DNA of 64,000 nt from Nitrososphaeria archaeon (GCA_029775855.1 JARVJZ010000004.1:4901-68900), one strand, 5' to 3'; shown: positions 14,690 through 37,457, counted from the stretch's first letter. Numbers and translations: made by a program. The notes: a model not told the origin generated them from the letters alone.

Positions 14690-16090
14690 TTACCATCTTC
14701 TTGATTGAATTAATTGATAAAACATCATAATCAACCCGGTTAAAAACCCAATCAGCATCAGGAAAATACCAAGCTGGATATACGGCATAGCAAAACTACT
14801 ATGCGGCTCAGGATCCAAGAATATATAGAATACGGTGGCTCCAGTCAAAAGAATATAACCAGCAGTCATGAGTGAACCAACGATCTTAATAGAGTGGCCA
14901 ATATTGTTTATTCTTAATAAGGCTAGTAGAAAGAGAGCAACAGCGGTTAGAGTAGCTAAAGCATGCTCATGTCCCAAGATGAACGGAATCTCATTTTTTA
15001 AACCTACAAATTTGTCCAGATGTAAAGCTACATATATGCCAGGTAATGTAACCGCGATGTTTACCCAAAAGAATGTGAAGAGGAGACCAAAAGAAGCGGG
15101 ATCTTTGAATAGATTCTTTATTGGGTGAGCGTGGCTGTTTTCTAACGCTATATCCGCCATAACAGCGTACATAATGAATAGTGAACCTTGTAGTATTATA
15201 GCGCCGCTTGGTGTTATAACGTTATGTGCAGCGACACCTAAGGGAATAGTGGCGTACGTTGATATAGAGACTGCGGGGATGCTTAAAGCTACCATATAAA
15301 GGCCTATATCACCAAATAACCCTCTTGTGCCTTTAAAAGATTGAATATTGAAATGCTTAGAAGCCAAAAATACTACTGCGGCGGCTACAACAGTTACGAT
15401 AGCGTGCCTATGTGCTGCAACTATAATCCTGAATCTTTCGAGTTCTTCCAAGGCTCCCCATTGACTACTCCCAGTACTTGCGTAAAATCCTATTAGTGAA
15501 GTAGATAATACGAAAAAGATGGCGAGCCAGATTCCTATCTTTATGGCCCTCTCCTTTTTCATCGCGTAGATACTTTCTGCTCTAACATTATATCTACTGA
15601 TTGCTAATAGAAGTGATGCTCCTGCTAAGAAAGATAGTGAAAGACCAAAATAAAGTACAGCGTGTGCGATAGGGTTCCATCTTAACATTATGATAGTCCA
15701 GGCGCCCGCCGACGCAGACACGTAACCAATCGTTGCGTTGATTATAGCGTAATCTGCAGCTCTTCCAGTTAAGTTTAGGATATCAATAGAGACATATACC
15801 AAAACGGCTACGAAAGATACAGCCAAAGCGTGATAGAATAGGCTCTCGTAGGTAATCAGCTGTATCAAAGGTATCCTAAGAAGAGCAGTTTGACTAAAAG
15901 GTGGTGAGAAAGAGATCAGTGCTAGAATCTGCGCGAAGATCCATGTTGATGTGATGAAGGTTAGTGCTGTTAGCAGCCCACGCATAGCCAGAATAAGTTT
16001 GTATTCATTAAAAAAGTTTGTTTTGATGAGGCTATTTTGAGCGTGGCTAGGTTGGTGGTTGGGAGAGTATCCTAAGCTGAGGTTGTCCAC
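14690..16090 (-). CDS. Polytopic (about 14 TM) His-rich membrane protein, unknown function
   Basis: 466 aa, hydrophobic throughout, with conserved-looking intramembrane His (FYHALAV, IAHAVLYF, AAHRHAIV, AAHNVI, GHEHALATL). It lies 20 nt upstream of the GT2 gene on the same strand, so it is probably co-transcribed. Confidence 0.5.
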   Translation of the reverse strand: MDNLSLGYSPNHQPSHAQNSLIKTNFFNEYKLILAMRGLLTALTFITSTWIFAQILALISFSPPFSQTALLRIPLIQLITYESLFYHALAVSFVAVLVYVSIDILNLTGRAADYAIINATIGYVSASAGAWTIIMLRWNPIAHAVLYFGLSLSFLAGASLLLAISRYNVRAESIYAMKKERAIKIGIWLAIFFVLSTSLIGFYASTGSSQWGALEELERFRIIVAAHRHAIVTVVAAAVVFLASKHFNIQSFKGTRGLFGDIGLYMVALSIPAVSISTYATIPLGVAAHNVITPSGAIILQGSLFIMYAVMADIALENSHAHPIKNLFKDPASFGLLFTFFWVNIAVTLPGIYVALHLDKFVGLKNEIPFILGHEHALATLTAVALFLLALLRINNIGHSIKIVGSLMTAGYILLTGATVFYIFLDPEPHSSFAMPYIQLGIFLMLIGFLTGLIMMFYQLIQSRRW

Positions 16091-16155: not shown

Positions 16156-17286
16156 GTGGGTTTTGTACGTTCGCTTTTAGCTCTGTTTCTCGCTTTGCTT
16201 GTGAGTGGGGTCTCTACTTCAGCGGTTTTAATTCTTCCTCCTCCTACGCCTCAAGACCCTTTGGCGCCTAAGATTCTTTCTTCTAAGGGGCAGAGTTTAG
16301 ATCCTGTTTTCAGCCCAGACGGTAAGTTCATAGCCTACTCCTCAAATCTTTACGGAGACTTCGACATATGGCTTATGACTGTTGATGGTAGGAATCAAGT
16401 TAGGTTAACTTGCTTAGAAGGAGATGAGAAGAAACCCCAGTTCAGCCCAGATGGAATGAAAATTGCCTTTATACATTCATCTAACTTCGGTGAAGACATT
16501 TGGGTAGTGAATAGAGATGGCTCAAACCCCGTTAAGATAACAAACAATCATACACCAAAAAACAAGTTTGAATGGTCGCCCAATGGGTACCTTATAATCT
16601 ACGACACAATTGTAAACGATAAATGGCAGGTTTGGCTAACTTCTTTGAACAAAGGTATCAATATTTTTGTTGGGGATTCTGAAGAAAGATACGCGCCTTC
16701 TTGGAGCCGCAACGGTAAGTTTGCTATATGTGTAAATAAAGGCGTCAAAGGGTATAGTTTGGAGTTAATAGATGTTTCGACTAATTCGGTTGAAAAAATT
16801 TACACAACATCTGCAGTTATAAAGTATCCAAGTTTCTTTAGTGCTGATGAAAAGATTCTCTTTTTAAGAGGAAACGGTGATTGGAGCGTATATACTTTCA
16901 ACATAGGTAATTCACGCATCACAAATCTATTTGCAGACCCACTAAGGTATTATGCGGGCATACCTTGGACACCCATTTTAGAATCGGAAGTACCTTACGC
17001 TACGAGAACTAAGGCTTCAGAGCTTCTTTTCGTCGGCTACTCTAAACAAGGCGCTGAATTGTTCATATTGTATGATGATATAGAGATAGACTTTAAGGAA
17101 AGAGGTGTAGGTGTTATAAAAGGTTCAATAATTGAGAGATTATTTACAATAGGGCATACAAGAATAAATAGCCTAAGTTGGAGCCAAGATGGTCATAGCA
17201 TCTTACTGTCGTTTACCGAAGGAGGTTATAATATATTATCCTTACTAGTTCTAGAAAAAAAGAAAGTTTCACCTTATGAAAAATAA
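16156..17286 (+). CDS. Secreted TolB-like beta-propeller protein (PD40/WD40-like repeats), paralog 1
   Basis: N-terminal signal or anchor (LLALFLALLVSGVSTSA). Repeated PD40-type motifs: FSPDGKFIAYSS..DIWLM, FSPDGMKIAFI..DIWVV, WSPNGYLIIY and PSWSRNGKFAI. Confidence 0.7.
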   Translation: MGFVRSLLALFLALLVSGVSTSAVLILPPPTPQDPLAPKILSSKGQSLDPVFSPDGKFIAYSSNLYGDFDIWLMTVDGRNQVRLTCLEGDEKKPQFSPDGMKIAFIHSSNFGEDIWVVNRDGSNPVKITNNHTPKNKFEWSPNGYLIIYDTIVNDKWQVWLTSLNKGINIFVGDSEERYAPSWSRNGKFAICVNKGVKGYSLELIDVSTNSVEKIYTTSAVIKYPSFFSADEKILFLRGNGDWSVYTFNIGNSRITNLFADPLRYYAGIPWTPILESEVPYATRTKASELLFVGYSKQGAELFILYDDIEIDFKERGVGVIKGSIIERLFTIGHTRINSLSWSQDGHSILLSFTEGGYNILSLLVLEKKKVSPYEK

Positions 17287-17305: not shown

Positions 17306-18064
17306 TTACCCATTGTCGTCTCTAGTTAATTCCATAAGTTCCTCTATATTCTTAGGCTTCAGAATCAGCTTATCCTTTAATCTAATTCCCATTGGTATTT
17401 CCTTTATATCATTTAGCGATTTGAAGATTGGTGGGAGAGGCTCTCTCGACCCTAAAAGTAGTAAGGCTTTATCCTCATCGTACGGGATTATCTTCTTCTT
17501 TTCACCCTTTGGTTTGAATACAACTGATGGGTTAGTTAAGCTTGGGTTTGGTAAGTCCTTTAGTTGTTTGACAGAACCATACTTTTTGACTAGATTCTCC
17601 ATTGTATCAAAGTCTAGAGCTCTCATCGGGCAAGCTAAGACGCATACAGGCTTAAGACCTTCTTCAAGTCTATCGATGCACATTGTACATTTATTAGCCT
17701 TAACGTCATTAGCTAACCTATCGCTCTCGTATGTTATGGCTCCATATGGGCAAGCTCGTTGGCAAAGTCTGTAACCTTTGCATTTTTCTTGATCTATCAG
17801 AACCGCGCCGTATTTCTCTTCTTTATATATTGCACCGTTAGGACACGCATCTATACAGACGGGATTACTACAATGGAAGCAGGTTACCCAGCGTATATGA
17901 GTTTTGATATTGGGATAATATCCCTCCTCATATTCGTAGATTCGAAGATATTTTATTGGCCCCGGTTTCAAGTCATACCAATCCTTACAAGCAACTACAC
18001 ACGCCTTGCAGTTAATGCATCTATCTTCGTTAAAGTAGAAGCCATATTGGACCATATCGCTCAC
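17306..18064 (-). CDS. Four-cluster ferredoxin subunit (DmsB/NarH-like) of molybdoenzyme 1
   Basis: Four Cys groups: CINCKACVVAC, CFHCSNPVCIDACP, CKGYRLCQRACP (C-x2-Y-x2-C-x3-CP, a NarH-like 3-Cys group) and CTMCIDRLEEGLKPVCVLACP. It has a C-terminal extension of about 100 aa ending in ELTRDDNG. It overlaps the catalytic gene by 4 nt. Confidence 0.85.
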   Translation of the reverse strand: MSDMVQYGFYFNEDRCINCKACVVACKDWYDLKPGPIKYLRIYEYEEGYYPNIKTHIRWVTCFHCSNPVCIDACPNGAIYKEEKYGAVLIDQEKCKGYRLCQRACPYGAITYESDRLANDVKANKCTMCIDRLEEGLKPVCVLACPMRALDFDTMENLVKKYGSVKQLKDLPNPSLTNPSVVFKPKGEKKKIIPYDEDKALLLLGSREPLPPIFKSLNDIKEIPMGIRLKDKLILKPKNIEELMELTRDDNG

Positions 18065-20736
18065 CTCAACTTTTGTACCTCAACAACACTTGTTACTGGG
18101 AATGAACCAGATGGGCTCATCGAATCATATGTCAACACATTACAAGCACCTCTGCTATCCATGCCAGCTGGGTTTGGTGTAAACCAAGCACCGTGCCAAA
18201 CTGCTACGACGCCAGGCATAATCTTTGCAGTCACATAAGCCGGCAGTATTATTTCACCGCAATCGTTGAATACTCTAACCAAATCACCATCCTTGATACC
18301 TCTAGCTTTTGCGTCAGAGACACTTATCCATACTGAGTGTCGATACGCCTCCTCATCTAGCATAGGGTTGGTATCGTATGCTGTGTGAGATCTGTAGCGG
18401 CTATGCGGTGTTATCATTGTTAATGGATACTTATTTGCCAATGGGCTGAACATCATGTGCTCTGGTGGAATATATTTTGGAATAGGTGGTACATATCCAC
18501 CGTATTTTGTTTTAGTGAGATCAGTTTTAGCCAAATACTCTGAATATATCTCGATCTTTTTAGATGAGGTATTTGCGAAAGGTTTTCCTTCTTTGACTTC
18601 AACGCCATATGAATAAAGTGGTTCTGGAAAATCAAAGTGGTAAACCACTTGCTTCTTGAAGTCTTCCCAGCTAGGTAGGGTTCGCCCAATATTTGCTAGA
18701 CTTTTTGCTCTTGCTTCCCACGCTGCTTTAAGAAGCCTATCTTTAGTTTCTTCCCATTTGGAGTCATCTGTGTAATTGGGGTTGAATTCTTTGAGGAAGC
18801 CCATCTTCTCCGCTAGCTTTGTAAATATCCAATCTGGTTCTTTTGCCTCTCCTTGAGGTTCAACACATTTAGGAGAGTAGACCCACCAGCAACCCGATAT
18901 ATTCCCCCAAGGTGAATCTATAGTTGTAGTTTCAAATGGTGTTTCGACTACTGGTAATATAACATCAGAATACAGTGCAGTAGGTGTCATATGTATTGCG
19001 AAGTTAACGACATAATCAACCTTCTCAAGCGCCTTTACACCCTTTAGAATGTTCATGTTTCTGTTCAGATATTGACCGATTGCGTTAAAGATCATCTTGA
19101 TATTAGGTAAGGGGTTAGTTGCAGGATTACCTATTATGCTATTGTACTGCTCGGCAGTCAACGATTTACCAACCTCGTCTCTAAGAAGTATGGTATCAGC
19201 CCACTTAAACTGCTTAAAAGCTATAATTGTCTTTTGTTTTCCACTTCCACCCCAGCTAGCGCTTGGTGGACTTGGGGCTCTATCGCTCTCAATAGCCCAA
19301 TTAGTGGTGTTAATGTATCCACCCGGTACACCGATGTTTCCAGTTAAAGCTTGAAGCGCTATTGCAGCTCGAGCAACGTTTTCACCGTATTGATTTCTTG
19401 CTGGAGCCCAGCTTTTGAAGAGGCAGACAGGCTTGCTTCTCGCATATAAACGTGCAAAGCTTCGTATGGTTTCAGCTGGCACACCGCAAATCTTTTCAGC
19501 CCACTCTGGAGTTTTTGGTACACCATCCTCAACTCCTGTGACGTAGTCCTTCCACTTCTTAACCCCTTCTGGTTCAACAAACTTTTCGACATATTCTTTA
19601 TCATATAAGTCTTCAGTAAAGAGCACATATGCAACCGCTAAAGCAAAAGCAATATCTGTACCTGGTCGTATTGGGATCCATTGGTCTGCTAGTATGTCTA
19701 TAGTGTTAGTGTATTTGGGATCTATCGCTATTATTGGAGTGCCTTTCTTTTCTTTGATAAGTTTCATAAGATATAAAGTGTTTGTGCCAAATATTGTGTT
19801 TGCAGGGTCGTGCCCCCATAGAACTATTAGATTTGAATTAATCATGTCTGTTGTCTGATGACCTTTACCATAAGTTATACCCAACATATGGTTCTCGCTA
19901 AAGATCTCTGCCTCAAAAGAGCAAACACCCCAGCTATCGACTGTGTCAACAATGTGACTAAAGAATCTTGAGGCTCCTCTCTGCCATATAGAATATGGCC
20001 CATATTTCTCTTTGACTTCCTTAATCATCTTTGCGACTAAATCTAATGCTTCATCCCAGCTAATTCTTACAAATTTTCCCTCTCCTCTCTTTGTGCCCTC
20101 CACTCTTTTCATTGGGTACTTTATCCGATCTGGATTGTATATCCAATATTTCAGTGCACGCCCCCTTACACAAGGACGCTTTTGGACGATCGCGTTTATT
20201 AGCTTGTGATAATCAAGCAACTCATCTTCAATCGCTACGTTTGAATGGAGTAAGTCGTCTCCTTCGATAGCTGTAATAACACCGTTCTTAATTCTTGCTT
20301 TAAGTAGACAACCTCTGCCACCGCAGTTAATTGTGCAACTACCATAGCTTATGGTTTCTTGTTGGTGTTTTGCTGCTAGTTGCTGTTTTATGGCTTCGAC
20401 TCTTTGTTTGATTTCTGGTGATAGGGGTGGTTTTAGGCTTGGTGGTGGGGGTGGTGTTTGAGTTACGGTTGTGGTTGCTGTTTGAGTTACTGTTGCTGTT
20501 TGTGTTACTGGTGTTGTGACTGTCGTTGTCTGTGTTACTGGTGTTGTTACCGTCGCTGTTTGTGTTGTGGTTCTGGTCTGTGTTACTGTTGCTGTGACTG
20601 TCTTTTCAACCTCTCTGATAGGTGTGAGAAGCCTATCAGCACCAACACCAACCGCAACACCAGCTACAGCAGAAGCAGCTAAAGCGCCAGCCCACTTCAA
20701 CATAGAACGGCGAGAAACCTTAACCTCCTCACCCAA
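18061..20736 (-). CDS. TAT-exported molybdopterin oxidoreductase catalytic subunit, DmsA-like, paralog 1
   Basis: Twin-arginine motif SRRSMLKW followed by an h-region. A Thr/Pro-rich insert of about 60 aa comes next. The FS0 motif is CTINCGGRGC...C. DMSO-reductase-family blocks are present (GEGKFVRISWDEALD, IDPKYT, WIPIRPGTD, TGNIGVPGG and the C-terminal GIKDGDLVRVFND). TTG start. Confidence 0.9.
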   Translation of the reverse strand: MGEEVKVSRRSMLKWAGALAASAVAGVAVGVGADRLLTPIREVEKTVTATVTQTRTTTQTATVTTPVTQTTTVTTPVTQTATVTQTATTTVTQTPPPPPSLKPPLSPEIKQRVEAIKQQLAAKHQQETISYGSCTINCGGRGCLLKARIKNGVITAIEGDDLLHSNVAIEDELLDYHKLINAIVQKRPCVRGRALKYWIYNPDRIKYPMKRVEGTKRGEGKFVRISWDEALDLVAKMIKEVKEKYGPYSIWQRGASRFFSHIVDTVDSWGVCSFEAEIFSENHMLGITYGKGHQTTDMINSNLIVLWGHDPANTIFGTNTLYLMKLIKEKKGTPIIAIDPKYTNTIDILADQWIPIRPGTDIAFALAVAYVLFTEDLYDKEYVEKFVEPEGVKKWKDYVTGVEDGVPKTPEWAEKICGVPAETIRSFARLYARSKPVCLFKSWAPARNQYGENVARAAIALQALTGNIGVPGGYINTTNWAIESDRAPSPPSASWGGSGKQKTIIAFKQFKWADTILLRDEVGKSLTAEQYNSIIGNPATNPLPNIKMIFNAIGQYLNRNMNILKGVKALEKVDYVVNFAIHMTPTALYSDVILPVVETPFETTTIDSPWGNISGCWWVYSPKCVEPQGEAKEPDWIFTKLAEKMGFLKEFNPNYTDDSKWEETKDRLLKAAWEARAKSLANIGRTLPSWEDFKKQVVYHFDFPEPLYSYGVEVKEGKPFANTSSKKIEIYSEYLAKTDLTKTKYGGYVPPIPKYIPPEHMMFSPLANKYPLTMITPHSRYRSHTAYDTNPMLDEEAYRHSVWISVSDAKARGIKDGDLVRVFNDCGEIILPAYVTAKIMPGVVAVWHGAWFTPNPAGMDSRGACNVLTYDSMSPSGSFPVTSVVEVQKLR

Positions 20737-20755
20737 ACAACATCAACTCTTGCTC
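20350..20755. repeat. Left arm of a perfect 406-bp inverted repeat (partner at 27719-28124)
   Basis: I compared the reverse complements block by block. The antisense ORFs in the two arms are also identical in the ORF track. Identity ends at 20349/28125 and at 20756/27718. Confidence 0.95.
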
Positions 20756-20771
20756 AGATACACACTATAAG

Positions 20772-20779
20772 TATTTAAA
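20772..20779 (-). promoter_or_regulatory. Candidate TATA box for molybdoenzyme-1 operon
   Basis: The minus strand reads TTTAAATA. It lies 16 nt outside the repeat arm and about 40 nt upstream of the TTG start. This is an archaeal TATA-like sequence read by eye only. Confidence 0.3.
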
Positions 20780-20937
20780 TCTTTCAAATATATGTATAAA
20801 AATTTTAGATAATATTTTTGAACTTAATCTTAAGTAGAAAGGAATATCTAAGTGTATAACGTTCGCTGTAAACTTGCATTACGCGCAATAGCCAAAACAA
20901 TTATCTAAAAGTGTGAGTAAAATATGGTGTATAAAGA

Positions 20938-22347
20938 TTGATAATAGTGTTGGTTAACCCACCTTTTACACTTAGTGAATGTTTCCGAGGTTTTGCAAGA
21001 GTTGGCAGTATACAGCAGCCGCTTGGTCTTGCTTATGTGGCGGCTGTATTGGAGGAGGCTGGGTATAATGTTAAGATTATCGATTCGCCGGTGTTAGGAC
21101 TGAGTTTACAAGAGACTGTCGAGACTGTCATTAGAATGAGACCAGATGTCGTCGGAATTACTGCCACCACTCCAACTTTCAATAGGGCTATTAGCTTAGC
21201 AGAAAGTCTAAAGAAGGTAGCTGATATACCACTAGTTATCGGTGGGCCGCATTCTACTACACTCCCTGATGAAACCCTAGCCCTTTCCTGCTTTGATATA
21301 GCGATCATAGGCGAAGGTGAATACACAATGCTTGAATTACTTAAATGCTTGCAAAAAGGTACATCTTTATACGAAGTTAAAGGGATAGCGTTTAAAGAAA
21401 GGGGACAGATAGTAAAGACTCCTCCTAGAGCATATATAGACGACCTAGATGCGCTTCCTTTTCCAGCGCGCCACCTCCTTCCACCTTTAAAGTATTATCA
21501 CCCTACTCCTTCTGCTTATCGCTCATTACCACAGGCTACAATGATTACAAGTAGAGGTTGCCCCTACCAATGCACCTTCTGCGACCGTTCAGTATTTGGA
21601 AACAAGTATAGAGCAAGAAGTCCCAAGAATGTAGTTGAAGAAGTTGAAGAACTCGTCTACGAATATAGGGCAAAAGAAGTGAGGTTTTGGGACGACACAT
21701 TTAACATCAACAGAAAAAGAGTTCTAGAGATTTGTAGAGAAATGCGGATGCGAAGACTAGACATAAGCTGGACATGCCTATGTAGGGCAAACTTAGTAGA
21801 TGAAGAAATGTTACGTGAAATGGCCAAGGCTGGGTGTTGGCAAGTAGAATATGGCATAGAATCCGGTAACGAGGAACTTCTTAAAAAGATCGGTAAGGGA
21901 ATTACTCTCCAACAAATTAAGGGCGCAGTAGAAAAAACTAAAGCCGCGGGTATGAAGGCCCGAGGTTTCTTTATGCTGGGCTTACCTGGTGAAACTGAGC
22001 AGACTCTCAGACAGACTATAATCTTCGCAAGGTCCTTAAAGCTGGATGCTGCTGTCTTCCACATTACGATCCCCTTTCCAGGAACAGACCTATATCTAAG
22101 CGCTGTCTCCAGTGGCGAACTACGCACTGACTTAAACTACCAATATTATTTGATGTTTGGCTCAGATGAAGTCCCATATATACCAAAAGGGTTAACTAAA
22201 GAAGTACTCTTGAAGTATCGGTCAATAGCATATAAGTCATTTTATCTAAGGCTAAGTTATATGCTAGAACAGTTAGCTTCTGCAAGATCTCTTAAAGATT
22301 TATTTCGATACCTACTTGGTTTTATAACCCTAGCGCGCATCGAGTGA
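20938..22347 (+). CDS. B12-binding-domain radical SAM protein (class B)
   Basis: The N-terminal part is a cobalamin-binding-like domain (LGLAYVAAVLEEAGYNVKIIDSP...VGITATTP). The radical SAM motif is SRGCPYQCTFCD. TTG start. Confidence 0.8.
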   Translation: MIIVLVNPPFTLSECFRGFARVGSIQQPLGLAYVAAVLEEAGYNVKIIDSPVLGLSLQETVETVIRMRPDVVGITATTPTFNRAISLAESLKKVADIPLVIGGPHSTTLPDETLALSCFDIAIIGEGEYTMLELLKCLQKGTSLYEVKGIAFKERGQIVKTPPRAYIDDLDALPFPARHLLPPLKYYHPTPSAYRSLPQATMITSRGCPYQCTFCDRSVFGNKYRARSPKNVVEEVEELVYEYRAKEVRFWDDTFNINRKRVLEICREMRMRRLDISWTCLCRANLVDEEMLREMAKAGCWQVEYGIESGNEELLKKIGKGITLQQIKGAVEKTKAAGMKARGFFMLGLPGETEQTLRQTIIFARSLKLDAAVFHITIPFPGTDLYLSAVSSGELRTDLNYQYYLMFGSDEVPYIPKGLTKEVLLKYRSIAYKSFYLRLSYMLEQLASARSLKDLFRYLLGFITLARIE

Positions 22348-22354
22348 GCCTAGT

Positions 22355-23044
22355 TTATTTGCTCAACTCATCTATTACAAAAGGTATAAATTCTTGTTCT
22401 ATTTTAATAAATCCATTTAACATTTTTGCAATACCTATGTAAAATTTGTTCGAAGACGCCTCTACAATCTTTCGACAAAGCTCTGGCACCCATTTACTTA
22501 GATGATCGCTTAAGAACTCCATTTGTAGTTTCAAGTATCCCTTTGAGTACTCAACGTTATTTGCGTCAAGGCTTCGCTTCGTCAAGTCTACCAGCTTTGC
22601 CATAAACTCTAGTTCCACAGCTAAATGGTCTTCAGGTTCTTTAAAATCAGGGGTTTTCTCAAAGCCTAATATTCTATATGCATCCAAGACCTCAAAATAT
22701 GGTTCTTCATATAACGTATGGTGCTTTCCAAGGTACACCGATTCAACTAAATAGACTGGTTTAGGGCCGACATTCAAGAAAAGTGATGCGTATTCTGAAG
22801 CAAGATCCGTAAGTAAGTTATTCCTTTCTGGAGTTTCTTTAAAGTTTTTAAAGAAATCGGATATGATTATGCAACCTTTCTTTAGTTCCTCATTATCTGC
22901 TGATTCAGACAATTGGATAAAAAGTTCTTCTAGTTCTTCTATAAGTTTGAGAAATGCTTCATCGACTTCCTTTGCAAAACTTCTTGATAAGAAGCTATAG
23001 AGAACGTACCTTGTCTGCATAACATCTTTATAATTATTTAACAA
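22355..23044 (-). CDS. TorD/DmsD-family redox-enzyme maturation chaperone
   Basis: The N-terminal RYVLYSFLSRSFAKEVDEAFL pattern and the acidic helical body (EDHLAVELEFMAKL) are typical of TorD-like chaperones. It is the last gene of the Psr-like operon. Confidence 0.65.
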   Translation of the reverse strand: MLNNYKDVMQTRYVLYSFLSRSFAKEVDEAFLKLIEELEELFIQLSESADNEELKKGCIIISDFFKNFKETPERNNLLTDLASEYASLFLNVGPKPVYLVESVYLGKHHTLYEEPYFEVLDAYRILGFEKTPDFKEPEDHLAVELEFMAKLVDLTKRSLDANNVEYSKGYLKLQMEFLSDHLSKWVPELCRKIVEASSNKFYIGIAKMLNGFIKIEQEFIPFVIDELSK

Positions 23045-23062
23045 CCTGATCTAACTTCCTTC

Positions 23063-24304
23063 TTATTGGTTAATATTCTTTTCCGTCCTCCATATAGGAA
23101 ATATCCAATATGCTATAGTAGTTATAAGAGCAATTATACCAAATAAAGCAGCGCCTATCGTTAATTCTATCCACGTAGGAAAGTACACACCATACACACC
23201 AAATGAAGATAAGCCGACACTGTATTCTCCTTTTGCTATGCCAGGTGGTAATAATATAGGCGGATATATATAGCCTGGGACTACAAGTTCAACTCTGTAG
23301 GATAATACGCCGGTAAGCACAAGTAAGGCTGCCAATCCAAGTATCTTCGGGTTCATTCTAAGTCTTGGATGTAATAGTAAGATGAATGGTAATATGGCCC
23401 CCGGGATCCACTCGTATACGAAGAATGGTAAGAAGGGGCCGGTAAATATTAGCGTTAGAGGTAGTGTCTCTGATGGTGCGGCAGACCATAACCTTATGAC
23501 GAATTCATTTCCTATAAGGAATAGATCTATTGGGATGATGACTGCAAGCAACTTACCGAGTGTATTAATTGTTTTAACCTCTACTCTTATTCGGCTGCGC
23601 CACTGCATGATTAGAACTGTCAATATGACTAATGAGAGCCCTGAGATCATAGCTGAGGCTAAGAAGATAGGGGCAATCAAAGCGCTGTACCACCAGCTTC
23701 TACTTATTTGTGTTCCGAATATCCACGCTGTTACTGTGTGTAGCATTACTGCTGTGGGCAGAGCTATAAACGAGATCACTTTGACTATTCTCTCGTCTTT
23801 AGCAACCGCTTTTGGCGAAACATCATTAAATCCGAAGGTGAGACGGCTGCCTTTCCTAGCTAACTCCGCACGCATCATAAACCAAAGATCAACTATACAC
23901 AAGACCAAATAGACAACTATTACAGTAAAGTCCCATATCAGCGGCGAAAGTGGATTGCCATATAATATAAGGTAGGCTATACGCTCAGGTCTACCCAAAT
24001 CTGGGATAATAGATAGAGCTGCAACAGCAACACAAGCAGCTGCCAGCGTGGTAGCCACTTTAGCTATCGGTTTAAACTCTTCTACTCCAAACACATGTGC
24101 AGAAGATGAGACGATAAGACCACCTGCGCTTATGCCTACGAAGAAGGCAAATAATGTGATGTAGATTCCCCAGCTTACAACATTTCTCATTCCAGTTACT
24201 ATCAACCCGTTTTGTAGCTGGATAATCCACGCACCCAAGCCTCCGCCGATGAGCAGAAGTAAAAATATTAACCAGCCGTAGAATAATGGCGAATGTTTAG
24301 CCAC
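23063..24304 (-). CDS. NrfD/PsrC-type integral membrane quinol-interacting subunit
   Basis: About 10 TM helices. The NrfD-like opening is VVSWGIYITLFAFFVGISAGGLIVSSS. It overlaps the FeS gene by 8 nt. Confidence 0.8.
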   Translation of the reverse strand: MAKHSPLFYGWLIFLLLLIGGGLGAWIIQLQNGLIVTGMRNVVSWGIYITLFAFFVGISAGGLIVSSSAHVFGVEEFKPIAKVATTLAAACVAVAALSIIPDLGRPERIAYLILYGNPLSPLIWDFTVIVVYLVLCIVDLWFMMRAELARKGSRLTFGFNDVSPKAVAKDERIVKVISFIALPTAVMLHTVTAWIFGTQISRSWWYSALIAPIFLASAMISGLSLVILTVLIMQWRSRIRVEVKTINTLGKLLAVIIPIDLFLIGNEFVIRLWSAAPSETLPLTLIFTGPFLPFFVYEWIPGAILPFILLLHPRLRMNPKILGLAALLVLTGVLSYRVELVVPGYIYPPILLPPGIAKGEYSVGLSSFGVYGVYFPTWIELTIGAALFGIIALITTIAYWIFPIWRTEKNINQ

Positions 24305-25106
24305 GCTGCAACACCCTCTTCAAAGTGGCTGAAGCGATAGCCTTTAGAGAAATATCACTTGATGTTGATATGATGGATGTTAATGTAGATTCGACATGCT
24401 TGACAAAAGCTTCATATAAGTTAGTAAACGACTGTTTACCACGTTTAGGTGGAAGATAGTAGGTCTTCGGTTGTGTCCCTAATTCTTCAAGCAATCTTAC
24501 ACCACTCCGCTCTTTAACCAGTTTTGACACTTTGCTATTGGGATCATCCAGATCTCCGAAGAATCTTGCTCTCGCGGGGCACATAGCTACGCAGAAGGGC
24601 TCTTGCCCATCTGTGATACGATGTATACATAGTGTGCATTTTTCTACGACACCCTTAGGTCTCTCCGGAGAATATATTATCCAACCCTCATCCTTTACTA
24701 CACCTTGATAACCTGTTCCATGCTCAGGCAAATGCTTTGGTTCTGCCCAGTTGAAGACGCGAACGCCATAAGGACAAGCGGCCATACAATATCTGCATCC
24801 TACACACCTCTCAATTCTTAGCTGTACAGTTCCATCTTCTTCACGCCTATAGGTGCCTGAAACAGGGCAAGCTTTTACACACGGTGCGTTATCACAATGT
24901 TGACATGTAATTGGAAGATAGAATATAGATGTATTTGGGTAGCTTCCTGAGCTTGTGTCAATCATAGACCCGCCGACGGTAAGCACTCGATTCCACCAAT
25001 TTCCTAAGCTCACATTATTCTCAAGTTTGCAAGCGATTGCGCAGGTTTGGCAGCCAATGCATCGATCCAAATCTATAACAAGCCCATATCTTACCAACCT
25101 AATCAC
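24297..25106 (-). CDS. Four-cluster ferredoxin subunit (PsrB/HybA-like)
   Basis: Cys groups CIGCQTCAIAC, CQHCDNAPCVKACP, CVGCRYCMAACP and CTLCIHRITDGQEPFCVAMCP. Confidence 0.85.
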   Translation of the reverse strand: MIRLVRYGLVIDLDRCIGCQTCAIACKLENNVSLGNWWNRVLTVGGSMIDTSSGSYPNTSIFYLPITCQHCDNAPCVKACPVSGTYRREEDGTVQLRIERCVGCRYCMAACPYGVRVFNWAEPKHLPEHGTGYQGVVKDEGWIIYSPERPKGVVEKCTLCIHRITDGQEPFCVAMCPARARFFGDLDDPNSKVSKLVKERSGVRLLEELGTQPKTYYLPPKRGKQSFTNLYEAFVKHVESTLTSIISTSSDISLKAIASATLKRVLQRG

Positions 25107-25109
25107 ATC

Positions 25110-27626
25110 CTATGCTTTTTGAACCTCAACTAATGTGTCAAAGAAGGAGCAGTTTAGAGTTATTGGATTCTTGTGTGCTGGTGTCAACTCATTATAGCTA
25201 CCTGCTGCGAACTGCCTTTTTTGCCATCCTTTATCCATGTTAATCAAGCCCGGTCTTAAACTTGGATTTAATTTGGCTCTCGCTCTTACCCAGCCTCTAT
25301 CGTTAAACACGTTAACGACATCGCCATTCTTAATTCCTCTGGCTTCAGCGTCCCTCGGGTTCATTTCGACAAATGGTTCTGGATCTAGTTCCCTTAACCA
25401 AGGAACTTCATACCACTGGGAGTGAACACGCCACTTCGAATGCTGCTGTATAAGCGTCAATGGATACTTCTTAGTTAAAGGGTTTTCGACCCAAGCTTCT
25501 TTAGGTGATTCAAAGTATGGAAGCGGATTAACACCCATAGTTACAGATATACCAAGAGCTGGATATGCCCAAGGATAGTTTAAAATCACCCTCTCAGAAT
25601 AAAACTCAAGACGCCCAGTTTGAGTAGGGTATTTACCGTCTTCATAGCCTATATAAGGCTCTTTAGAAAGTCTTACTACTCCCTCTTCTTTGAATCTTTT
25701 GATCTTTTCTTCACCGTATACTTCCTTTAACGCAGCAAGTATTCTTTCCCGATGGTCAGCTTCTGAACCTTGAAAGTATTGACCGAATCCCATCTTTTCA
25801 GCTAACATCTTAAAGATGTCCCAATCACTTTTGCATTCATACAACGGTTTGATCGCTCTTTCTTGGATCATTAGGTATGGGTGTAAACCACCCATTAAAT
25901 CGTCGTTCTCAAACCACGTTGTAGCTGGGAGAACAATATCAGCAAACATAGCTGTATCATTCATCTTCTGCTCTATCACTACGATAAATTCTAAGTTTTC
26001 TTCGGAAAACAGCTTTTCAATCCACTTTTGATTAGGGTAGCTGTTAACAAAGTTAGTACAAGATATTACTGCAGCTTTGATGGTGTATGGTGTTGGGATG
26101 GGGTCTTTGCTTATAGTTCCTTTTAAGGGGTCAGCCGGATCGCTAGGCACATACCTTTCAACATAACCATAAGCTATTGCGTCGTAAGCTAGGAGCGGAT
26201 TCAGGGTGTGAGCTTCTGTCCCAGATGGGGTAACCCACCTCCAAGACTCACTTAAAGCTGCTATTAGAGCTGAACCACCGTATGGTCCTCCAACCATCGC
26301 GCCAGGCCTACCTATGTTTCCAGTTAGTGCTGCTAGTGTAGCTAACGCTCTACCAGTAAGATAGCCATTATCCCATCTATCTACACCGAACCCTGCGAGA
26401 ATGCAGGCTGGTTTTCTTGTTGCATAGAGCCTTGCTACTTCTTGAACTTCGTTTGCAGGAACTTCGGTTAGCGCTTCAGCGTTTTCGGGTTTATATTTTG
26501 AGGCTTCTTCCCAAAGTAGCTGTAGAGCTGTTTTACAAAGTATACCATTAATTACGTATTTTCCAAAAAGAGCTGGAGGCATAGCTTTCTCGAAAACCGT
26601 TGGAGCGTCGGTGGCTTCATCATAGACTACATAATTGTTACTACCGTTTTCTTTGATGTCTTTTTCTCTTAAAAATAGACCATTATCTAATCTAACCAGA
26701 AATGGTGCGACTGTGCGCTCTAGAACAAACTTTCTATCATATAGCTCTTCATTCAATATGGTGTAGATCATTGAGAGGGCTAGCGCCGGATCTGAGCCTG
26801 GTCTTGGTTTTAGCCATATATCTGATTTGGCGGCTACAACACTCATTCTAGGATCGATGGAAACCATTTTTGCCCCGTTTTCCAGAGCATCTGCTACGAA
26901 ATGCCAGTTTTGAATCTGGCTTTCAGTGAAGTTAGACCCCCACATTATGATAAGCCTAGTATTATCTGCTATATCCACTGCTTCGTTAGCGCCAAAGAAA
27001 GCTGAGCTACCTCCTGGGATGTTTGCAATAACTTGGCTAAGTCCAAGTGGGAGGGCTGAGTCGACTCCTCCTTCTACTACCGTACCTTGAAATATATTGG
27101 CAAATAGCTTCATGGCGCCACAGAAGCTACCATTCACTAAACCATAATTCCCAGAGAGTGTAGCGAACATTACAGCACTTGAGCCATACTTCTCTTTGAC
27201 TTTTAAGAGTTTTTGTGCAATAGTGTTAATGGCTTCATCCCAGCTTATCCTTACCCACTTACCCTCACCCCTCTTCCCCACTCTTTTCAAAGGATACTTT
27301 AGTCTATTTGGATCATAAACACGTTGAACATGAGATAAACCTCTAAGGCATATCCGATCATACCTTCTATTGGGCATAGGTGCCATCTCAGTTTTAACAA
27401 GCTTATCCTCAAATACGTGGACATAAAGCCTGCAGCTCTGCCAGCAGTTAGGAGCGCAAGCGCTACGAAATACTTTAGTTGTCTTCTCCATCTTTTCGAT
27501 TGAAGCAGAAGCGCGAGATGGTATAAGCAAATTGCAACCAAGTGAGGATAAAGCTGCAATAGAAGTTGTTAAGGCAAGGCCTTTCAGGAAGGAACGACGC
27601 GATAGAACCATTGTAGGCTTATCCAC
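25110..27626 (-). CDS. TAT-exported molybdopterin oxidoreductase catalytic subunit (Psr/Ttr/Dms-like), substrate unknown
   Basis: Twin-arginine signal SRRSFLKGLALTT. FS0 motif CAPNCWQSC. Family blocks GEGKWVRISWDEAI, IDPRMS, TGNIGRPG and the C-terminal GIKNGDVVNVFND. Confidence 0.9.
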   Translation of the reverse strand: MDKPTMVLSRRSFLKGLALTTSIAALSSLGCNLLIPSRASASIEKMEKTTKVFRSACAPNCWQSCRLYVHVFEDKLVKTEMAPMPNRRYDRICLRGLSHVQRVYDPNRLKYPLKRVGKRGEGKWVRISWDEAINTIAQKLLKVKEKYGSSAVMFATLSGNYGLVNGSFCGAMKLFANIFQGTVVEGGVDSALPLGLSQVIANIPGGSSAFFGANEAVDIADNTRLIIMWGSNFTESQIQNWHFVADALENGAKMVSIDPRMSVVAAKSDIWLKPRPGSDPALALSMIYTILNEELYDRKFVLERTVAPFLVRLDNGLFLREKDIKENGSNNYVVYDEATDAPTVFEKAMPPALFGKYVINGILCKTALQLLWEEASKYKPENAEALTEVPANEVQEVARLYATRKPACILAGFGVDRWDNGYLTGRALATLAALTGNIGRPGAMVGGPYGGSALIAALSESWRWVTPSGTEAHTLNPLLAYDAIAYGYVERYVPSDPADPLKGTISKDPIPTPYTIKAAVISCTNFVNSYPNQKWIEKLFSEENLEFIVVIEQKMNDTAMFADIVLPATTWFENDDLMGGLHPYLMIQERAIKPLYECKSDWDIFKMLAEKMGFGQYFQGSEADHRERILAALKEVYGEEKIKRFKEEGVVRLSKEPYIGYEDGKYPTQTGRLEFYSERVILNYPWAYPALGISVTMGVNPLPYFESPKEAWVENPLTKKYPLTLIQQHSKWRVHSQWYEVPWLRELDPEPFVEMNPRDAEARGIKNGDVVNVFNDRGWVRARAKLNPSLRPGLINMDKGWQKRQFAAGSYNELTPAHKNPITLNCSFFDTLVEVQKA

Positions 27627-27691
27627 TACAAGCCTATCTTTTATATTTTTCCTTGGTTGTCGCTAAATTTTTTGTTTATTTTGTTTAAATA

Positions 27692-27700
27692 TTTATATAT
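27692..27700 (+). promoter_or_regulatory. Candidate TATA box for molybdoenzyme-2 operon
   Basis: TTTATATAT lies about 19-27 nt outside the repeat arm and about 40 nt upstream of the TTG start at 27738. Read by eye only. Confidence 0.3.
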
Positions 27701-27718
27701 TAGCTCTACTTTGATTTA

Positions 27719-28124
27719 GAGCAAGAGTTGATGTTGTTTGGGTGAGGAGGTTAAGGTTTCTCGCCGTTCTATGTTGAAGTGGGCTGGCGCTTTAGCTGCT
27801 TCTGCTGTAGCTGGTGTTGCGGTTGGTGTTGGTGCTGATAGGCTTCTCACACCTATCAGAGAGGTTGAAAAGACAGTCACAGCAACAGTAACACAGACCA
27901 GAACCACAACACAAACAGCGACGGTAACAACACCAGTAACACAGACAACGACAGTCACAACACCAGTAACACAAACAGCAACAGTAACTCAAACAGCAAC
28001 CACAACCGTAACTCAAACACCACCCCCACCACCAAGCCTAAAACCACCCCTATCACCAGAAATCAAACAAAGAGTCGAAGCCATAAAACAGCAACTAGCA
28101 GCAAAACACCAACAAGAAACCATA
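27719..28124. repeat. Right arm of the perfect 406-bp inverted repeat (partner at 20350-20755)
   Basis: Same evidence as the left arm. It covers 19 nt of 5' leader plus codons 1-129 of the gene. Confidence 0.95.
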
Positions 28125-30428
28125 GTGTACAGTGGGGGGTGTGGAATAAATTGTGGTGGTGGCGGAGGTTGGGATAGTGGGTGCTTCTTTAAAATAAGAC
28201 TTAGGGATGGTGTGATAACAGCTATAGAATCTGATGATACTATTAACACCAATCTGCCTAGGGAAGACGAAGTAAAAGATAACATTGATAAAGTGAGACT
28301 TCAACGCCGACCGTGTGTCCGTGGTAGAGCTTGGCGCAAATATATCTACGGACCAGACCGTATTCTATATCCATTGAAGAGAGTAGGTCAAAGAGGTGAG
28401 GGAAAGTTTGTTCGAATTAGTTGGAATGAGGCTCTAGATACTATTGCAGCTAAAATGAAAGAAATGAAAGAGAAATACGGTCCATACTCAATAGGCACTA
28501 TGTATGAGTACCAAGAGTTTCCTAACATTCTTGCATACTTTGGTTGCGGCGCTACAGGTTGGAGCACAGCGTCTTTTGAAGCTACTAACTTTGCTGGGCT
28601 ACAGATGATGGGTGCTTGGGCTTGGATACCTTACGTTGATCACGAAGCACCAGACATTTTTAACACTAAACTCATAATCATGTGGGGGTGGGACCCAACT
28701 ACATCAGAATGGATGATCTTCACAAAATACTATCTTCTACTAGCAAAAGAAAAGGGTATACCAATTATCGTAATCGAACCTAGATATACGTCATCGGCAG
28801 AAGTTTATGCAGACCAGTGGATACCAATTAGACCCGGCACTGATGTAGCAATGATGTTAGCGATGGCAAACGTTATATTCAAGGAAAAGCTTTACGATCA
28901 AGATTATATCTCGAAATATGTGGATACGAATGGTCTTCAAAAATGGATGGACTATGTCTTAGGTAAGTCTGATGGAGTCGATAAGACGCCTGAGTGGGCA
29001 GAGAAGATATGCGGTGTTCCTGCTGAAACTATACGCGACTTAGCTCGACTATACGCTAAGAGCAAACCTTGCCATCTTAATGTAAGCTGGGCGCAAGCCA
29101 GACAGCCTTGGGGTGAGAATGTCGCTAGAGCAGCAATAGCTTTACACGCCATAACGGGAAACATAGGTGTGCCAGGTGGTGCTTCTTGCTTAGGTGGTGG
29201 ATTTGTGGCAAGAGGTGTTTATGATAGCCCAGTTGTCGATTATAGGCAAAAACCTGTTCCCGTAACAGAAATGTGGGGTGGGACATTACCAGTGCTATAT
29301 TGCAACTGGAAGTGGGCTGATGTAGTTCTGCTAAAAGAGAAGGTTGATAAGGGTGAGATGACTAAAGAAGATTACTACAGCATCATCGGTAACGATGCAA
29401 ATAACCCTATGCCCAATCTACATATGTTATGGATAAATAAGAACATATTTAATCAGACAGTTGATCTTAACAAACAAATCAAGGCTATTATGAAGATGGA
29501 CTTTGTAGTTGCTTGCGGGAGGCATATGACGCCATCAAACAAATATGCTGATATAATATTGCCCCTAACAGATGTCATGTTTGAAGAAAGACACTTTTTC
29601 GGCAACATGTATGCACCAAAGATCATTAACCCCCCAGGAGAAGCAAAAGATTTGTTGTGGATTCAAACTCAACTCGCCAAAAGACTGGGTCTTCTCGACT
29701 TGTATATGCCACTCTACACTACAGATGCTGAATGGGATAACTTGCTGGAAAGGCTCCATAAAGAAGCCTATGAAAAATGGGCGGCTCAACGAGGAATAAA
29801 TGTTTCTTGGGAGGAGTTTAAGAAGAAGCCAATAATACGCAGAGATGTCGTAGGAGAATTGAATTATCCCTTTAAAGCGCAGATTCAGAAAGGTGAGAAA
29901 TTTAACACAAGTACTGGCAAGATCGAAATATATTCTGAATATTTGGCTAAGACTGATCTAAAGAAGACAAGATACGGAGGATATATAGATCCTATGCCAG
30001 TCTACAGACCGCTTTGGGAAGGCTTTTACGATCCAAAAGCAAAAAAGTATCCACTTATGGTTATCACACCCCACGGAAGGTACAGAATCCACTCTGTTCA
30101 AGACTCTAATCCTTGGTTATCTGAAGATGCATATAGGAACTCAGTTTGGATAAGTGTGGTCGACGCTAAAGCAAGAGGCATTAAAGACGGTGACTTAGTC
30201 AGAGTTTACAACGACGTGGGAGAAATGGTGATTCCAGCTTATGTGACTTCGAGGATAGTACCTGGTGTAGTCTGTGTGTATGAGGGTAGATGGTATAGTC
30301 CAAACCCCAAAGGAGTCGATCGTAGAGGATGCAGTGATATAATATGTTATAATGAGAGTGCTGTACAACGATATCCCGGCGCTGGAGCTTGGCCGTTTAC
30401 AGCGCTTGTGGAGGTTGAAAAGTTCTAA
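27738..30428 (+). CDS. TAT-exported molybdopterin oxidoreductase catalytic subunit, DmsA-like, paralog 2
   Basis: The first 129 aa are identical to paralog 1. The FS0 motif carries a Gly-rich insertion (CGINCGGGGGWDSGC). Family blocks are present (GEGKFVRISWNEALD, IEPRYT, WIPIRPGTD, TGNIGVPGG, GIKDGDLVRVYND). By eye it is roughly half identical to paralog 1 after residue 129. Confidence 0.9.
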   Translation: MGEEVKVSRRSMLKWAGALAASAVAGVAVGVGADRLLTPIREVEKTVTATVTQTRTTTQTATVTTPVTQTTTVTTPVTQTATVTQTATTTVTQTPPPPPSLKPPLSPEIKQRVEAIKQQLAAKHQQETIVYSGGCGINCGGGGGWDSGCFFKIRLRDGVITAIESDDTINTNLPREDEVKDNIDKVRLQRRPCVRGRAWRKYIYGPDRILYPLKRVGQRGEGKFVRISWNEALDTIAAKMKEMKEKYGPYSIGTMYEYQEFPNILAYFGCGATGWSTASFEATNFAGLQMMGAWAWIPYVDHEAPDIFNTKLIIMWGWDPTTSEWMIFTKYYLLLAKEKGIPIIVIEPRYTSSAEVYADQWIPIRPGTDVAMMLAMANVIFKEKLYDQDYISKYVDTNGLQKWMDYVLGKSDGVDKTPEWAEKICGVPAETIRDLARLYAKSKPCHLNVSWAQARQPWGENVARAAIALHAITGNIGVPGGASCLGGGFVARGVYDSPVVDYRQKPVPVTEMWGGTLPVLYCNWKWADVVLLKEKVDKGEMTKEDYYSIIGNDANNPMPNLHMLWINKNIFNQTVDLNKQIKAIMKMDFVVACGRHMTPSNKYADIILPLTDVMFEERHFFGNMYAPKIINPPGEAKDLLWIQTQLAKRLGLLDLYMPLYTTDAEWDNLLERLHKEAYEKWAAQRGINVSWEEFKKKPIIRRDVVGELNYPFKAQIQKGEKFNTSTGKIEIYSEYLAKTDLKKTRYGGYIDPMPVYRPLWEGFYDPKAKKYPLMVITPHGRYRIHSVQDSNPWLSEDAYRNSVWISVVDAKARGIKDGDLVRVYNDVGEMVIPAYVTSRIVPGVVCVYEGRWYSPNPKGVDRRGCSDIICYNESAVQRYPGAGAWPFTALVEVEKF

Positions 30429-30436
30429 GAGGTGGT

Positions 30437-31183
30437 ATGATGGTTCAATATGGATTTTTCTTTGACCAAAGCAGATGCATAGGTTGCAGAGCTTGCGCTG
30501 TAGCTTGCAAGGACTGGAACGATCTGCCTGAAGGACCGGTTAAGTGGCTTCGGATATATGAATATGAAAAGGGTGCTTTCCCAAATGTGAGGGTTCACTA
30601 CCACTTCATTCCTTGTTTCCATTGCGAAAACCCCATATGTATAGACGCATCTAGTGCTCGCGGTATTTATAAGGAAGAAAAGTATGGTGCTGTGTTAATA
30701 GACCCTGATAAGGCTACTAAACTGAGGGATGCAGCCGCTGCTTGCCTATACGGTTCGATAGTCTTTGAAAGTGATGCCTCTGATGCAAAAGCCTCAAAAT
30801 GCACAATGTGCATAGATCGATTAGAAGAGGGGCTACTACCAGTTTGCGTAGCAGCGTGCCCAACTAGAGCTTTGGATTTTGGACCTCTTGAAACATTGCA
30901 AAGAAAGTATGGTACAAACAGGGATCTAGAGGATCTACCACCGTCTACTCTAACAAAGCCTTCCGCAATCTTTAAGCCACACTCTCCGAAGAAGCAGCTA
31001 GTCAGCTACGATGTAAATAAGGCCCTAAAGCTGCTTGCTGAAAGAGGCGATCTACCAAGTATATATAGTACAGCTGAGGATGTATTAAATATACCAGAAG
31101 GGCTGTTAAAGCGCAATAAGTTAGTTCTTAAGCCAAATAGCGTAAAGGACCTTCAAGAACTAACAAGGGACGATAACGCCTAA
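30437..31183 (+). CDS. DmsB-like ferredoxin subunit of molybdoenzyme 2, with one cluster-binding site lost
   Basis: Group I (CIGCRACAVAC) and group IV (CTMCIDRLEEGLLPVCVAACP) are intact. Group II is CFHCENPICIDASS, so its last Cys is Ser. Group III is ATKLRDAAAACL, so only its last Cys is kept. The C-terminal extension ends in ELTRDDNA. Confidence 0.85.
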   Translation: MMVQYGFFFDQSRCIGCRACAVACKDWNDLPEGPVKWLRIYEYEKGAFPNVRVHYHFIPCFHCENPICIDASSARGIYKEEKYGAVLIDPDKATKLRDAAAACLYGSIVFESDASDAKASKCTMCIDRLEEGLLPVCVAACPTRALDFGPLETLQRKYGTNRDLEDLPPSTLTKPSAIFKPHSPKKQLVSYDVNKALKLLAERGDLPSIYSTAEDVLNIPEGLLKRNKLVLKPNSVKDLQELTRDDNA

Positions 31184-37456: not shown

Positions 37457-37457
37457 T

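Follow-up and report, generated by a model that had tools for sequence, protein, structure and literature searches.

Two genes for molybdopterin enzymes in an uncultured archaeal lineage of hot-spring type begin with one and the same stretch of DNA. They lie in a 64,000-nucleotide piece of a Nitrososphaeria archaeon assembly (GCA_029775855.1, JARVJZ010000004.1:4901-68900), which was analysed as a whole and which we call the window. Gene A (18061-20736, minus strand) and gene B (27738-30428, plus strand) point away from each other, and their 5' ends form an inverted repeat. The left arm (20350-20755, minus strand) is the head of gene A: a 19-nt leader and codons 1-129. The right arm (27719-28124, plus strand) is the head of gene B and the exact reverse complement of the left arm; it begins 19 nt 5' of the TTG start at 27738 and ends past codon 129, an arrangement that the left arm mirrors on gene A. 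A repeat search and a direct string comparison both give 406 nt at 100% complementarity. An earlier reading of the same DNA (the original prediction) had described an exact 406-bp inverted repeat, made of the 19 nt before TTG and codons 1-129 of these two divergent genes. Exact alignment of the arms finds no mismatch and confirms this description throughout. Neither blastn nor tblastn detects a further full or partial copy of the arm in the 64-kb window.

The arms are 6,963 nt apart. The spacer between them (20756-27718) is the segment that a crossover between the arms would invert. It contains a B12-binding radical SAM gene (20938-22347, plus strand), which is divergent from A, and a complete Psr-like operon on the minus strand. 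This operon encodes a third molybdopterin catalytic subunit (25110-27626, Psr/type II-like), which is divergent from B, a 4Fe-4S subunit (24297-25106), an NrfD/PsrC-type membrane anchor (23063-24304) and a TorD/NarJ-family chaperone (22355-23044), a family that proofreads substrates of twin-arginine (Tat) export. All of these genes were assigned by domain searches. The third catalytic subunit has its own N-terminus and is about 27% identical to A. A second NrfD-type anchor or TorD-type chaperone was not found among the open reading frames (ORFs) scanned, which are about 29 of the 55 ORFs of at least 150 amino acids in the window.

Genes A (891 amino acids) and B (896 amino acids) encode paralogous DmsA/YnfE-like catalytic subunits. 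The molybdopterin oxidoreductase and dinucleotide-binding domains (PF00384 and PF01568) are present in both, and also in C, a third paralog found in related strains. The best PDB match of A is the dimethyl sulfoxide (DMSO) reductase 1eu1, and the closest solved structures to A and B are DMSO and trimethylamine N-oxide reductases. Orthologs are P0001 for A (85% identical) and P0002 for B. The best family is TIGR02166 (dmsA_ynfE), with 507 (A), 481 and 420 bits, all below the curated cutoff of 777.7. By these scores A and B appear nearest to the DmsA/YnfE subfamily, yet under its curated cutoff.

The head has a simple layout. A Tat motif (VSRRSMLKW) is followed by a hydrophobic stretch of 19 residues rich in Ala, Gly and Val, a Thr-rich low-complexity linker with imperfect 18/24/30-nt repeats, a PPPPP run and the helix segment KPPLSPEIKQRVEAIK. 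The twin-arginine signal profile PF10518 reaches 20.8-20.9 bits on the heads (cutoff 22.7), and the motif SRRSMLKW is present. We infer that the head is an export signal combined with a surface tether or stalk. It is an ordinary part of the enzyme subfamily, because the same architecture recurs with a different sequence in the more distant homologs P0004, P0035, P0083 and P0122.

Heads and bodies of A and B have very different histories. Identity between the two genes is 100% through alignment column 120 and falls abruptly after codon 129. In the bodies, windows of 30 codons vary between 24 and 87% amino-acid identity and between 40 and 76% DNA identity; whole bodies are about 55% identical as protein and 58% as DNA. 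Nonsynonymous divergence (dN) is 0.42 in the bodies and synonymous divergence (dS) is saturated. For the heads (122 codons) dN and dS are both zero. The 19-nt leader is identical in the two arms as well, so that identity covers synonymous and non-coding sites. The tract ends are abrupt: DNA identity of 100% gives way to about 58% at codon 129/130 and, at position -19, to about 68%. Even where the bodies agree in protein they differ in DNA. The peptide KTPEWAEKICGVPAETIR, identical in both, is written with different codons at 10 of its 18 positions. The original prediction had proposed a fall to roughly half identity directly after codon 129, different synonymous codons in conserved body peptides, and old paralogous bodies behind identical heads; windowed identity, codon usage and dN/dS bear out each of these statements.

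Beyond the perfect arms, a weaker homology extends inwards for about 55 nt, at about 68% identity, into both promoters. Including it, 20350-20808 and 28124-27663 are 95.5% identical over 462 nt. At one edge of the spacer, the upstream region of A (20756-20808, minus strand) carries the TATA-like sequence TTTAAATA at 20772-20779. At the other edge, the upstream region of B (27663-27718, plus strand) carries the TATA-like sequence TTTATATA at 27692-27699. Candidate TATA boxes of both genes are thus present where they had been predicted, just outside the arms and within the spacer, and they align with each other. Because homology extends about 55 nt past the arms, the two promoters, which are defined here by TATA-like motifs inferred from sequence, are diverged copies of one another.

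Identical heads are also found in a second assembly and in a set of related contigs. Over 22,676 nt, contig JAVZBW010000013.1 (38.7 kb) of the independent assembly GCA_038874695.1 runs collinear with the window and differs from it by 4 single-nucleotide polymorphisms (SNPs); it has the same perfect 406-nt repeat in the same spacing and orientation. More distant are the contigs of a sister lineage, which come from five different samples. L002 and L087 carry the A ortholog, L003/L088, L004 and L091 carry the B ortholog together with the spacer, and L089 carries paralog C. In this lineage A (L002), B (L004, L091) and C (L089) have an exact common run of 392 nt and are 99.7-100% identical over the 339-nt coding region of the head. 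This head is not the head of the window. The two are 81% identical and differ by a 30-nt indel in the Thr-rich tract.

The bodies show the opposite pattern. Between lineages, orthologous bodies are 76% (A-A), 79% (B-B) and 67% (C-C) identical in DNA, compared to 53-61% for paralogs, and the orthologous bodies of the sister lineage are saturated at synonymous sites against those of the window. Heads cluster by genome and bodies cluster by ortholog. A comparison of the arms across related genomes thus gives identical heads within each lineage and 81% identity between lineages. The outer boundary of the tract agrees between the two lineages to within a few nucleotides and immediately precedes the first Cys motif. 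The inner boundary varies: it is at -19 in the window and at -55 in the sister lineage. There the repeat takes in 55 nt ahead of the start, and with them the TATA-like sequence TTTATTTA, which lies inside both arms; therefore a flip of the spacer would not exchange core promoters in that lineage.

In a more distant lineage the heads are not homogenised. Contig L094 (Logan SRR31012007) has three clustered cassettes whose heads share the architecture of the window heads, and the best match among them is 73% over 201 nt. Hence head identity is not imposed by function alone. P0004 is a single gene and P0035 is one of the three clustered cassettes on the longer L094 contig; the contexts of P0004 and P0035/L094 provide no further example of head sharing beyond the window lineage and the sister lineages. 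A search with protein A of the contigs of GTDB species representatives yielded no close relative, the best match being 39% identical. The accessions of the related assemblies gave no match in the literature.

We think it highly probable that the heads undergo segmental concerted evolution, driven by repeated gene conversion between inverted paralogs. Conversion would have to be repeated, because heads group by genome and bodies by ortholog. Homogenisation would have occurred after the lineages split and independently in each, because each lineage has its own head sequence. The clustering of heads by genome strongly backs the earlier proposal of recent gene conversion or ongoing recombination.

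The process can be pictured as follows. Non-reciprocal homologous recombination between the inverted copies would repeatedly re-copy one head onto the other, and in related strains paralog C would take part as well. A conversion tract would run out as soon as the copies cease to match: outwards at the beginning of the catalytic body, ahead of the first Cys motif, and inwards at the promoter, which had diverged already. The agent would be the general (RadA-type) recombination machinery, with no dedicated invertase. An identical head may be tolerated or even favoured through the same route of export and tethering, possibly with a common Tat-proofreading chaperone. Crossover resolution of the same intermediates would occasionally flip the 6,963-bp spacer and swap two similar upstream regions, as a by-product.

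Several points weigh against repeated conversion or weaken the case for it. Between lineages (window versus L002/L004) head dS is 0.51, far below the saturated dS of the bodies, although dN is greater in the head (0.13) than in the bodies (0.06-0.09). The low dS could reflect exchange of heads between lineages or a constraint on codons in the Thr tract. All sequences are assembled contigs, and short-read assemblers can pop small bubbles and so hide a rare SNP; assembler consensus could slightly overstate the perfect identity of the arms. As the conversion reading rests on assemblies, recombination intermediates, copy number and a mixture of orientations would be seen indirectly at best. Finally, the functional reason for keeping one head, a common chaperone or tether, is putative.

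The bodies belong to cassettes. Each catalytic gene is followed by a DmsB-like 4Fe-4S subunit gene identified by Pfam, at 17306-18064 (minus strand) downstream of A and at 30437-31183 (plus strand) downstream of B. By the A cassette lies a PD40/Tricorn-like beta-propeller gene (16156-17286, plus strand), and by the B cassette a PD40-like beta-propeller gene (31200-32318, plus strand) recognised by its domain and by sequence comparison. No membrane anchor gene follows either the A or the B cassette.

At the position of A, related strains carry a different cassette. L005, a contig of the metagenome-assembled genome (MAG) GCA_038883255.1 (labelled Nitrososphaerales archaeon at NCBI), starts inside a window-type head, 98.6% identical over 144 nt. 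Next come a C-type body (47% protein identity to A), an iron-sulfur (FeS) gene and PD40. Within PD40, at the equivalent of window position 16580, the contig begins to match the A flank of the window, at 92% identity. In the sister lineage, L089 has C in the slot where L087 and L090 have A, with a flank that is 98% identical up to a breakpoint inside PD40. L097 and L096 also have C beside the A-side flank genes. These contigs show that the cassette, consisting of body, FeS gene and the 3' part of PD40, is polymorphic at one chromosomal slot. Where C replaces A, the exchanged segment lies between the head and the conserved 5' part of PD40, which in the window extends to about 16580.

The PD40 gene is a regular companion of these enzymes. 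It adjoins nearly every DmsA-like and FeS pair of these lineages or sits a few genes away (window, L005, L089, L094, L097), and molybdenum subunit, FeS subunit and PD40 form a conserved three-gene cassette without a membrane-anchor gene. Beside A and C the PD40 gene is convergent; beside B it is co-directional. The cluster at L094:4300-22688 packs three Mo-FeS cassettes into about 20 kb, has ApbE and NosR-like genes for neighbours and includes a PD40 gene beside two of the three cassettes. We know of no role for a PD40-type propeller in molybdoenzymes.

The locus is clearly prone to rearrangement, with insertion sequence (IS) insertions in several strains and an inversion in L096. In L089 a perfect 750-nt inverted repeat occupies both contig ends (1-750 and 13669-14418). 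It contains an ORF of 183 amino acids with a weak match to the DUF772 (IS5-type) transposase. Because the repeat is found at both ends, the segment with C, head, Psr operon and radical SAM gene is bracketed by inverted IS copies. A different element is found in L003 (1-348) and L091 (7785-8050): a degenerate IS6-like transposase remnant with stop codons, judged by eye from the translation, 33 nt from the position that corresponds to the start of the A head of L004. At the other end of L003 (15017-15270) is a second IS6-like copy, in inverted orientation. L003/L088 and L091 share the linkage of B, head and Psr operon, and next to the intergenic region on the radical SAM side the IS6-like remnant takes the place of the A head. 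The strains of L003 and L091 seem to be without an A head at that position.

The inversion in L096 is a clean reciprocal one of 2,022 bp inside the C ortholog (L096:3814-5836 versus L089:4467-6488). Its breakpoints are the PPPPP/SLKPP junction of the head and a mid-body position, and no obvious repeat is found at either of them. The neighbouring FeS gene is broken into two ORFs. The contig lacks the Psr/B region, and the second radical SAM gene comes after the head fragment. The C copy of L096 is probably a decaying cassette.

Besides gene conversion as a general process, the arms could serve a programmed or frequent switch, in which flips of the spacer exchange the upstream control of A and B and their divergent partners, the radical SAM gene and the Psr operon. 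The geometry fits: the arms are identical and inverted, and the TATA-like boxes of both genes lie just inside the spacer. As logic, the original prediction was correct: with a crossover between the arms the spacer would be inverted and the upstream regions would change places, and both proteins would stay as they are. Gene conversion shows that the arms recombine, and in the tuf precedent discussed below inversions accompany conversion. Still, we consider such a switch unlikely. No recombinase, integrase or transposase was found among the genes of 14690-35287 and nine other large ORFs of the window, which make up the ORFs scanned. The orientation of the spacer is identical in the window, GCA_038874695.1 and L004, and thus constant between two lineages that have reached synonymous saturation in their orthologs. 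The two promoters are paralogous and similar, and the repeat of the sister lineage includes the TATA-like box, which makes core promoters unswappable there. Invertons with short inverted repeats of tens of bp and a dedicated invertase nearby look different: the arms here are 406 bp of coding sequence, and the ORFs scanned include no such invertase.

One contig speaks for a flip. The usual orientation is seen in the window, GCA_038874695.1 and L004, and the usual linkage of B, head and Psr operon in L003/L088 and L091 too. L089 has the opposite linkage: it reads IS, A-flank genes, FeS, C, head, Psr operon, chaperone, radical SAM gene, IS, so that the head connects the cassette in the A position with the Psr side. 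The flank of L089 is 98% identical and its spacer 99.3-99.7% identical to contigs of the usual arrangement, and its sample (Ga0080004) yielded only one head-bearing contig. On the other hand, L089 may be a chimera formed at the repeat of about 400 nt; it ends in IS copies, and the locus is full of rearrangements. Its linkage may come from a real flip or from a repeat-induced chimera, as the contig is compatible with both. The simplest derivation would be one head-to-head crossover and two IS insertions.

Nothing positive supports a programmed or regulatory switch, though the idea is not refuted. Of the earlier interpretation, the part that concerns gene conversion or recombination stands, since heads group by genome; the promoter-swap switch is not supported, given the lack of a recombinase in the scanned ORFs, the constant orientation and the similar promoters. 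That a flip has a functional meaning is doubtful. That both orientations could be detected at low frequency, as a neutral by-product, is a good deal more plausible, perhaps a little short of an even bet. Both A and B should be expressed in either orientation, because both ends of the spacer carry a TATA-like element of their own.

A wider role for the heads is likewise improbable, namely that of a recombination device acting at two levels. Within a cell, flips of the spacer would re-pair bodies and control regions. Between cells, cassettes would be exchanged, with the head and the conserved 5' part of PD40 as homology arms for the exchange of A and C at one slot. L089, with C at the A position and joined to the Psr side, would then be a natural product of both processes.

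Even less credit is due to the view that a recent duplication, a single conversion event or purifying selection alone produced the identity in place of ongoing homogenisation. One recent event would also give zero differences in 406 nt. However, a second lineage independently has identical heads, with a different sequence and on three paralogs. Synonymous sites and leader are identical too, which selection on the protein cannot account for. On this synonymous-site and cross-lineage evidence we reject both the selection-only and the single-event origin.

An assembly artefact, in which the heads differ, or a single head exists, and both contexts received a repeat that the assembler had duplicated or collapsed, is very unlikely: the window does come from a metagenome-type assembly and in relatives contig ends often fall on the arms (L002, L087, L090, L005 and L004 start in or at the head), but an independent MAG 4 SNPs away has the same perfect repeat, spacing and orientation, the sister lineage shows the same phenomenon in contigs of five different samples, the assembler kept single mismatches between the arms in L004, and A and B are both full-length ORFs whose proteins need a Tat signal. 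Contig ends in the head, common in related metagenomes, are expected of a genuine repeat. A mobile-element origin of the arms was rejected as well; the arms are coding sequence and the locus in the window has no transposase.

Gene conversion between inverted paralogs has a well-studied counterpart in the tufA and tufB genes of Salmonella. Homologous recombination makes these two genes evolve together, and as many as half of the events invert the intervening region (PMC6735719). As proposed for our locus, inverted paralogs are homogenised by general recombination, and crossovers produce hybrid operons in which the promoter context has changed and the proteins have not (PMC6735719, PMC5485169). 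The differences are of scale and of content. In tuf whole genes are homogenised over a distance of 761 kb, whereas here it is the first 406 nt only, over 7 kb; the host is an archaeon, and the bodies diverged long ago and presumably act on different substrates. By analogy, the mechanism would work like that of tufA/tufB, while the geometry resembles the sap locus of Campylobacter fetus.

At sap, studied by Dworkin and Blaser in 1996-1997, opposed paralogs reportedly have identical 5' regions of several hundred bp. These are said to flank an invertible segment of about 6 kb that contains an operon and a promoter, and inversion is said to depend on RecA, with no dedicated invertase. The 5' module reportedly encodes a common N-terminal anchoring part and the 3' bodies are variable. 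The likeness lies in identical 5' regions on opposed paralogs around a promoter-bearing segment, where the promoters on our side are TATA-like motifs only. The systems differ in their promoters. Sap has a single one and inversion picks the expressed paralog, leading to antigenic variation; here aligned TATA-like elements are present at both ends of the spacer. They also differ in that inversion at our locus is a prediction.

Other inverted systems are more remote. Plastid inverted repeats are 10-25 kb long, homogenised by conversion, and exist as equimolar flip-flop isomers. They are like the present arms in being identical inverted repeats homogenised by conversion, and unlike them in their length and equimolar isomers. 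In hsdS-type shufflons, inversions re-assort the 5' and 3' modules of genes. These systems differ from the present case by their silent partial copies and, usually, a dedicated recombinase.

Among archaea, the mtrA duplicates of methanogens offer an example of segmental gene conversion in paralogs (PMC4632066), and a survey treats such conversion in archaeal and prokaryotic paralogs (PMC6053082). What they describe resembles our case: concerted evolution within a genome that lasts for a long time and shows as a conflict between paralog and ortholog trees (PMC4632066, PMC6053082). By a term search, PMC6053082 does not mention signal peptides, N-terminal regions, inversion or inverted repeats. 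The literature retrieved contains no description of a head-only conversion tract on respiratory molybdoenzymes. The mechanism itself is familiar. What is added is the module that it affects, for export and tethering of archaeal enzymes of the DMSO-reductase family, and the cassette polymorphism.

The locus is an unusually clean natural case of concerted evolution that is confined to one protein module, an export signal with a tether, on anciently diverged enzymes. It suggests that respiratory molybdoenzymes of this lineage consist of a common head and an exchangeable catalytic cassette, and that strains differ in the cassette per slot. There are practical consequences. A common head of about 400 bp breaks short-read assemblies, or can mis-join them, at exactly these genes. 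Including the N-terminus would mislead phylogenies of the DMSO-reductase family. If flipping occurs and alters expression, it would be, to our knowledge and with no literature search made on this claim, the first reported recombination-based regulatory swap of archaeal respiratory paralogs.

A few further observations concern the surroundings of the locus and the rest of the window. Rfam and tRNA scans of the window gave no matches. The gene at 14690-16090 (466 amino acids) has no Pfam or NCBIfam match. In the sister-lineage contigs L087, L089 and L090 it is flipped while the order of its neighbours is kept, which amounts to a single-gene inversion, and a search for inverted repeats flanking the gene found nothing convincing. 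At 6785-6918 a blastn self-comparison of the window detects a 71-nt direct repeat with an offset of 63 nt and 91.5% identity, which resembles a short tandem array in or near the ORF at 6646-7260. The regions 35729-39050 and 45921-48911 contain genes for a platform protein and an ATPase of the T2SSF/T2SSE type (pilus or archaellum-like) and for a protein of 996 amino acids with Big_1/invasin-like Ig repeats.

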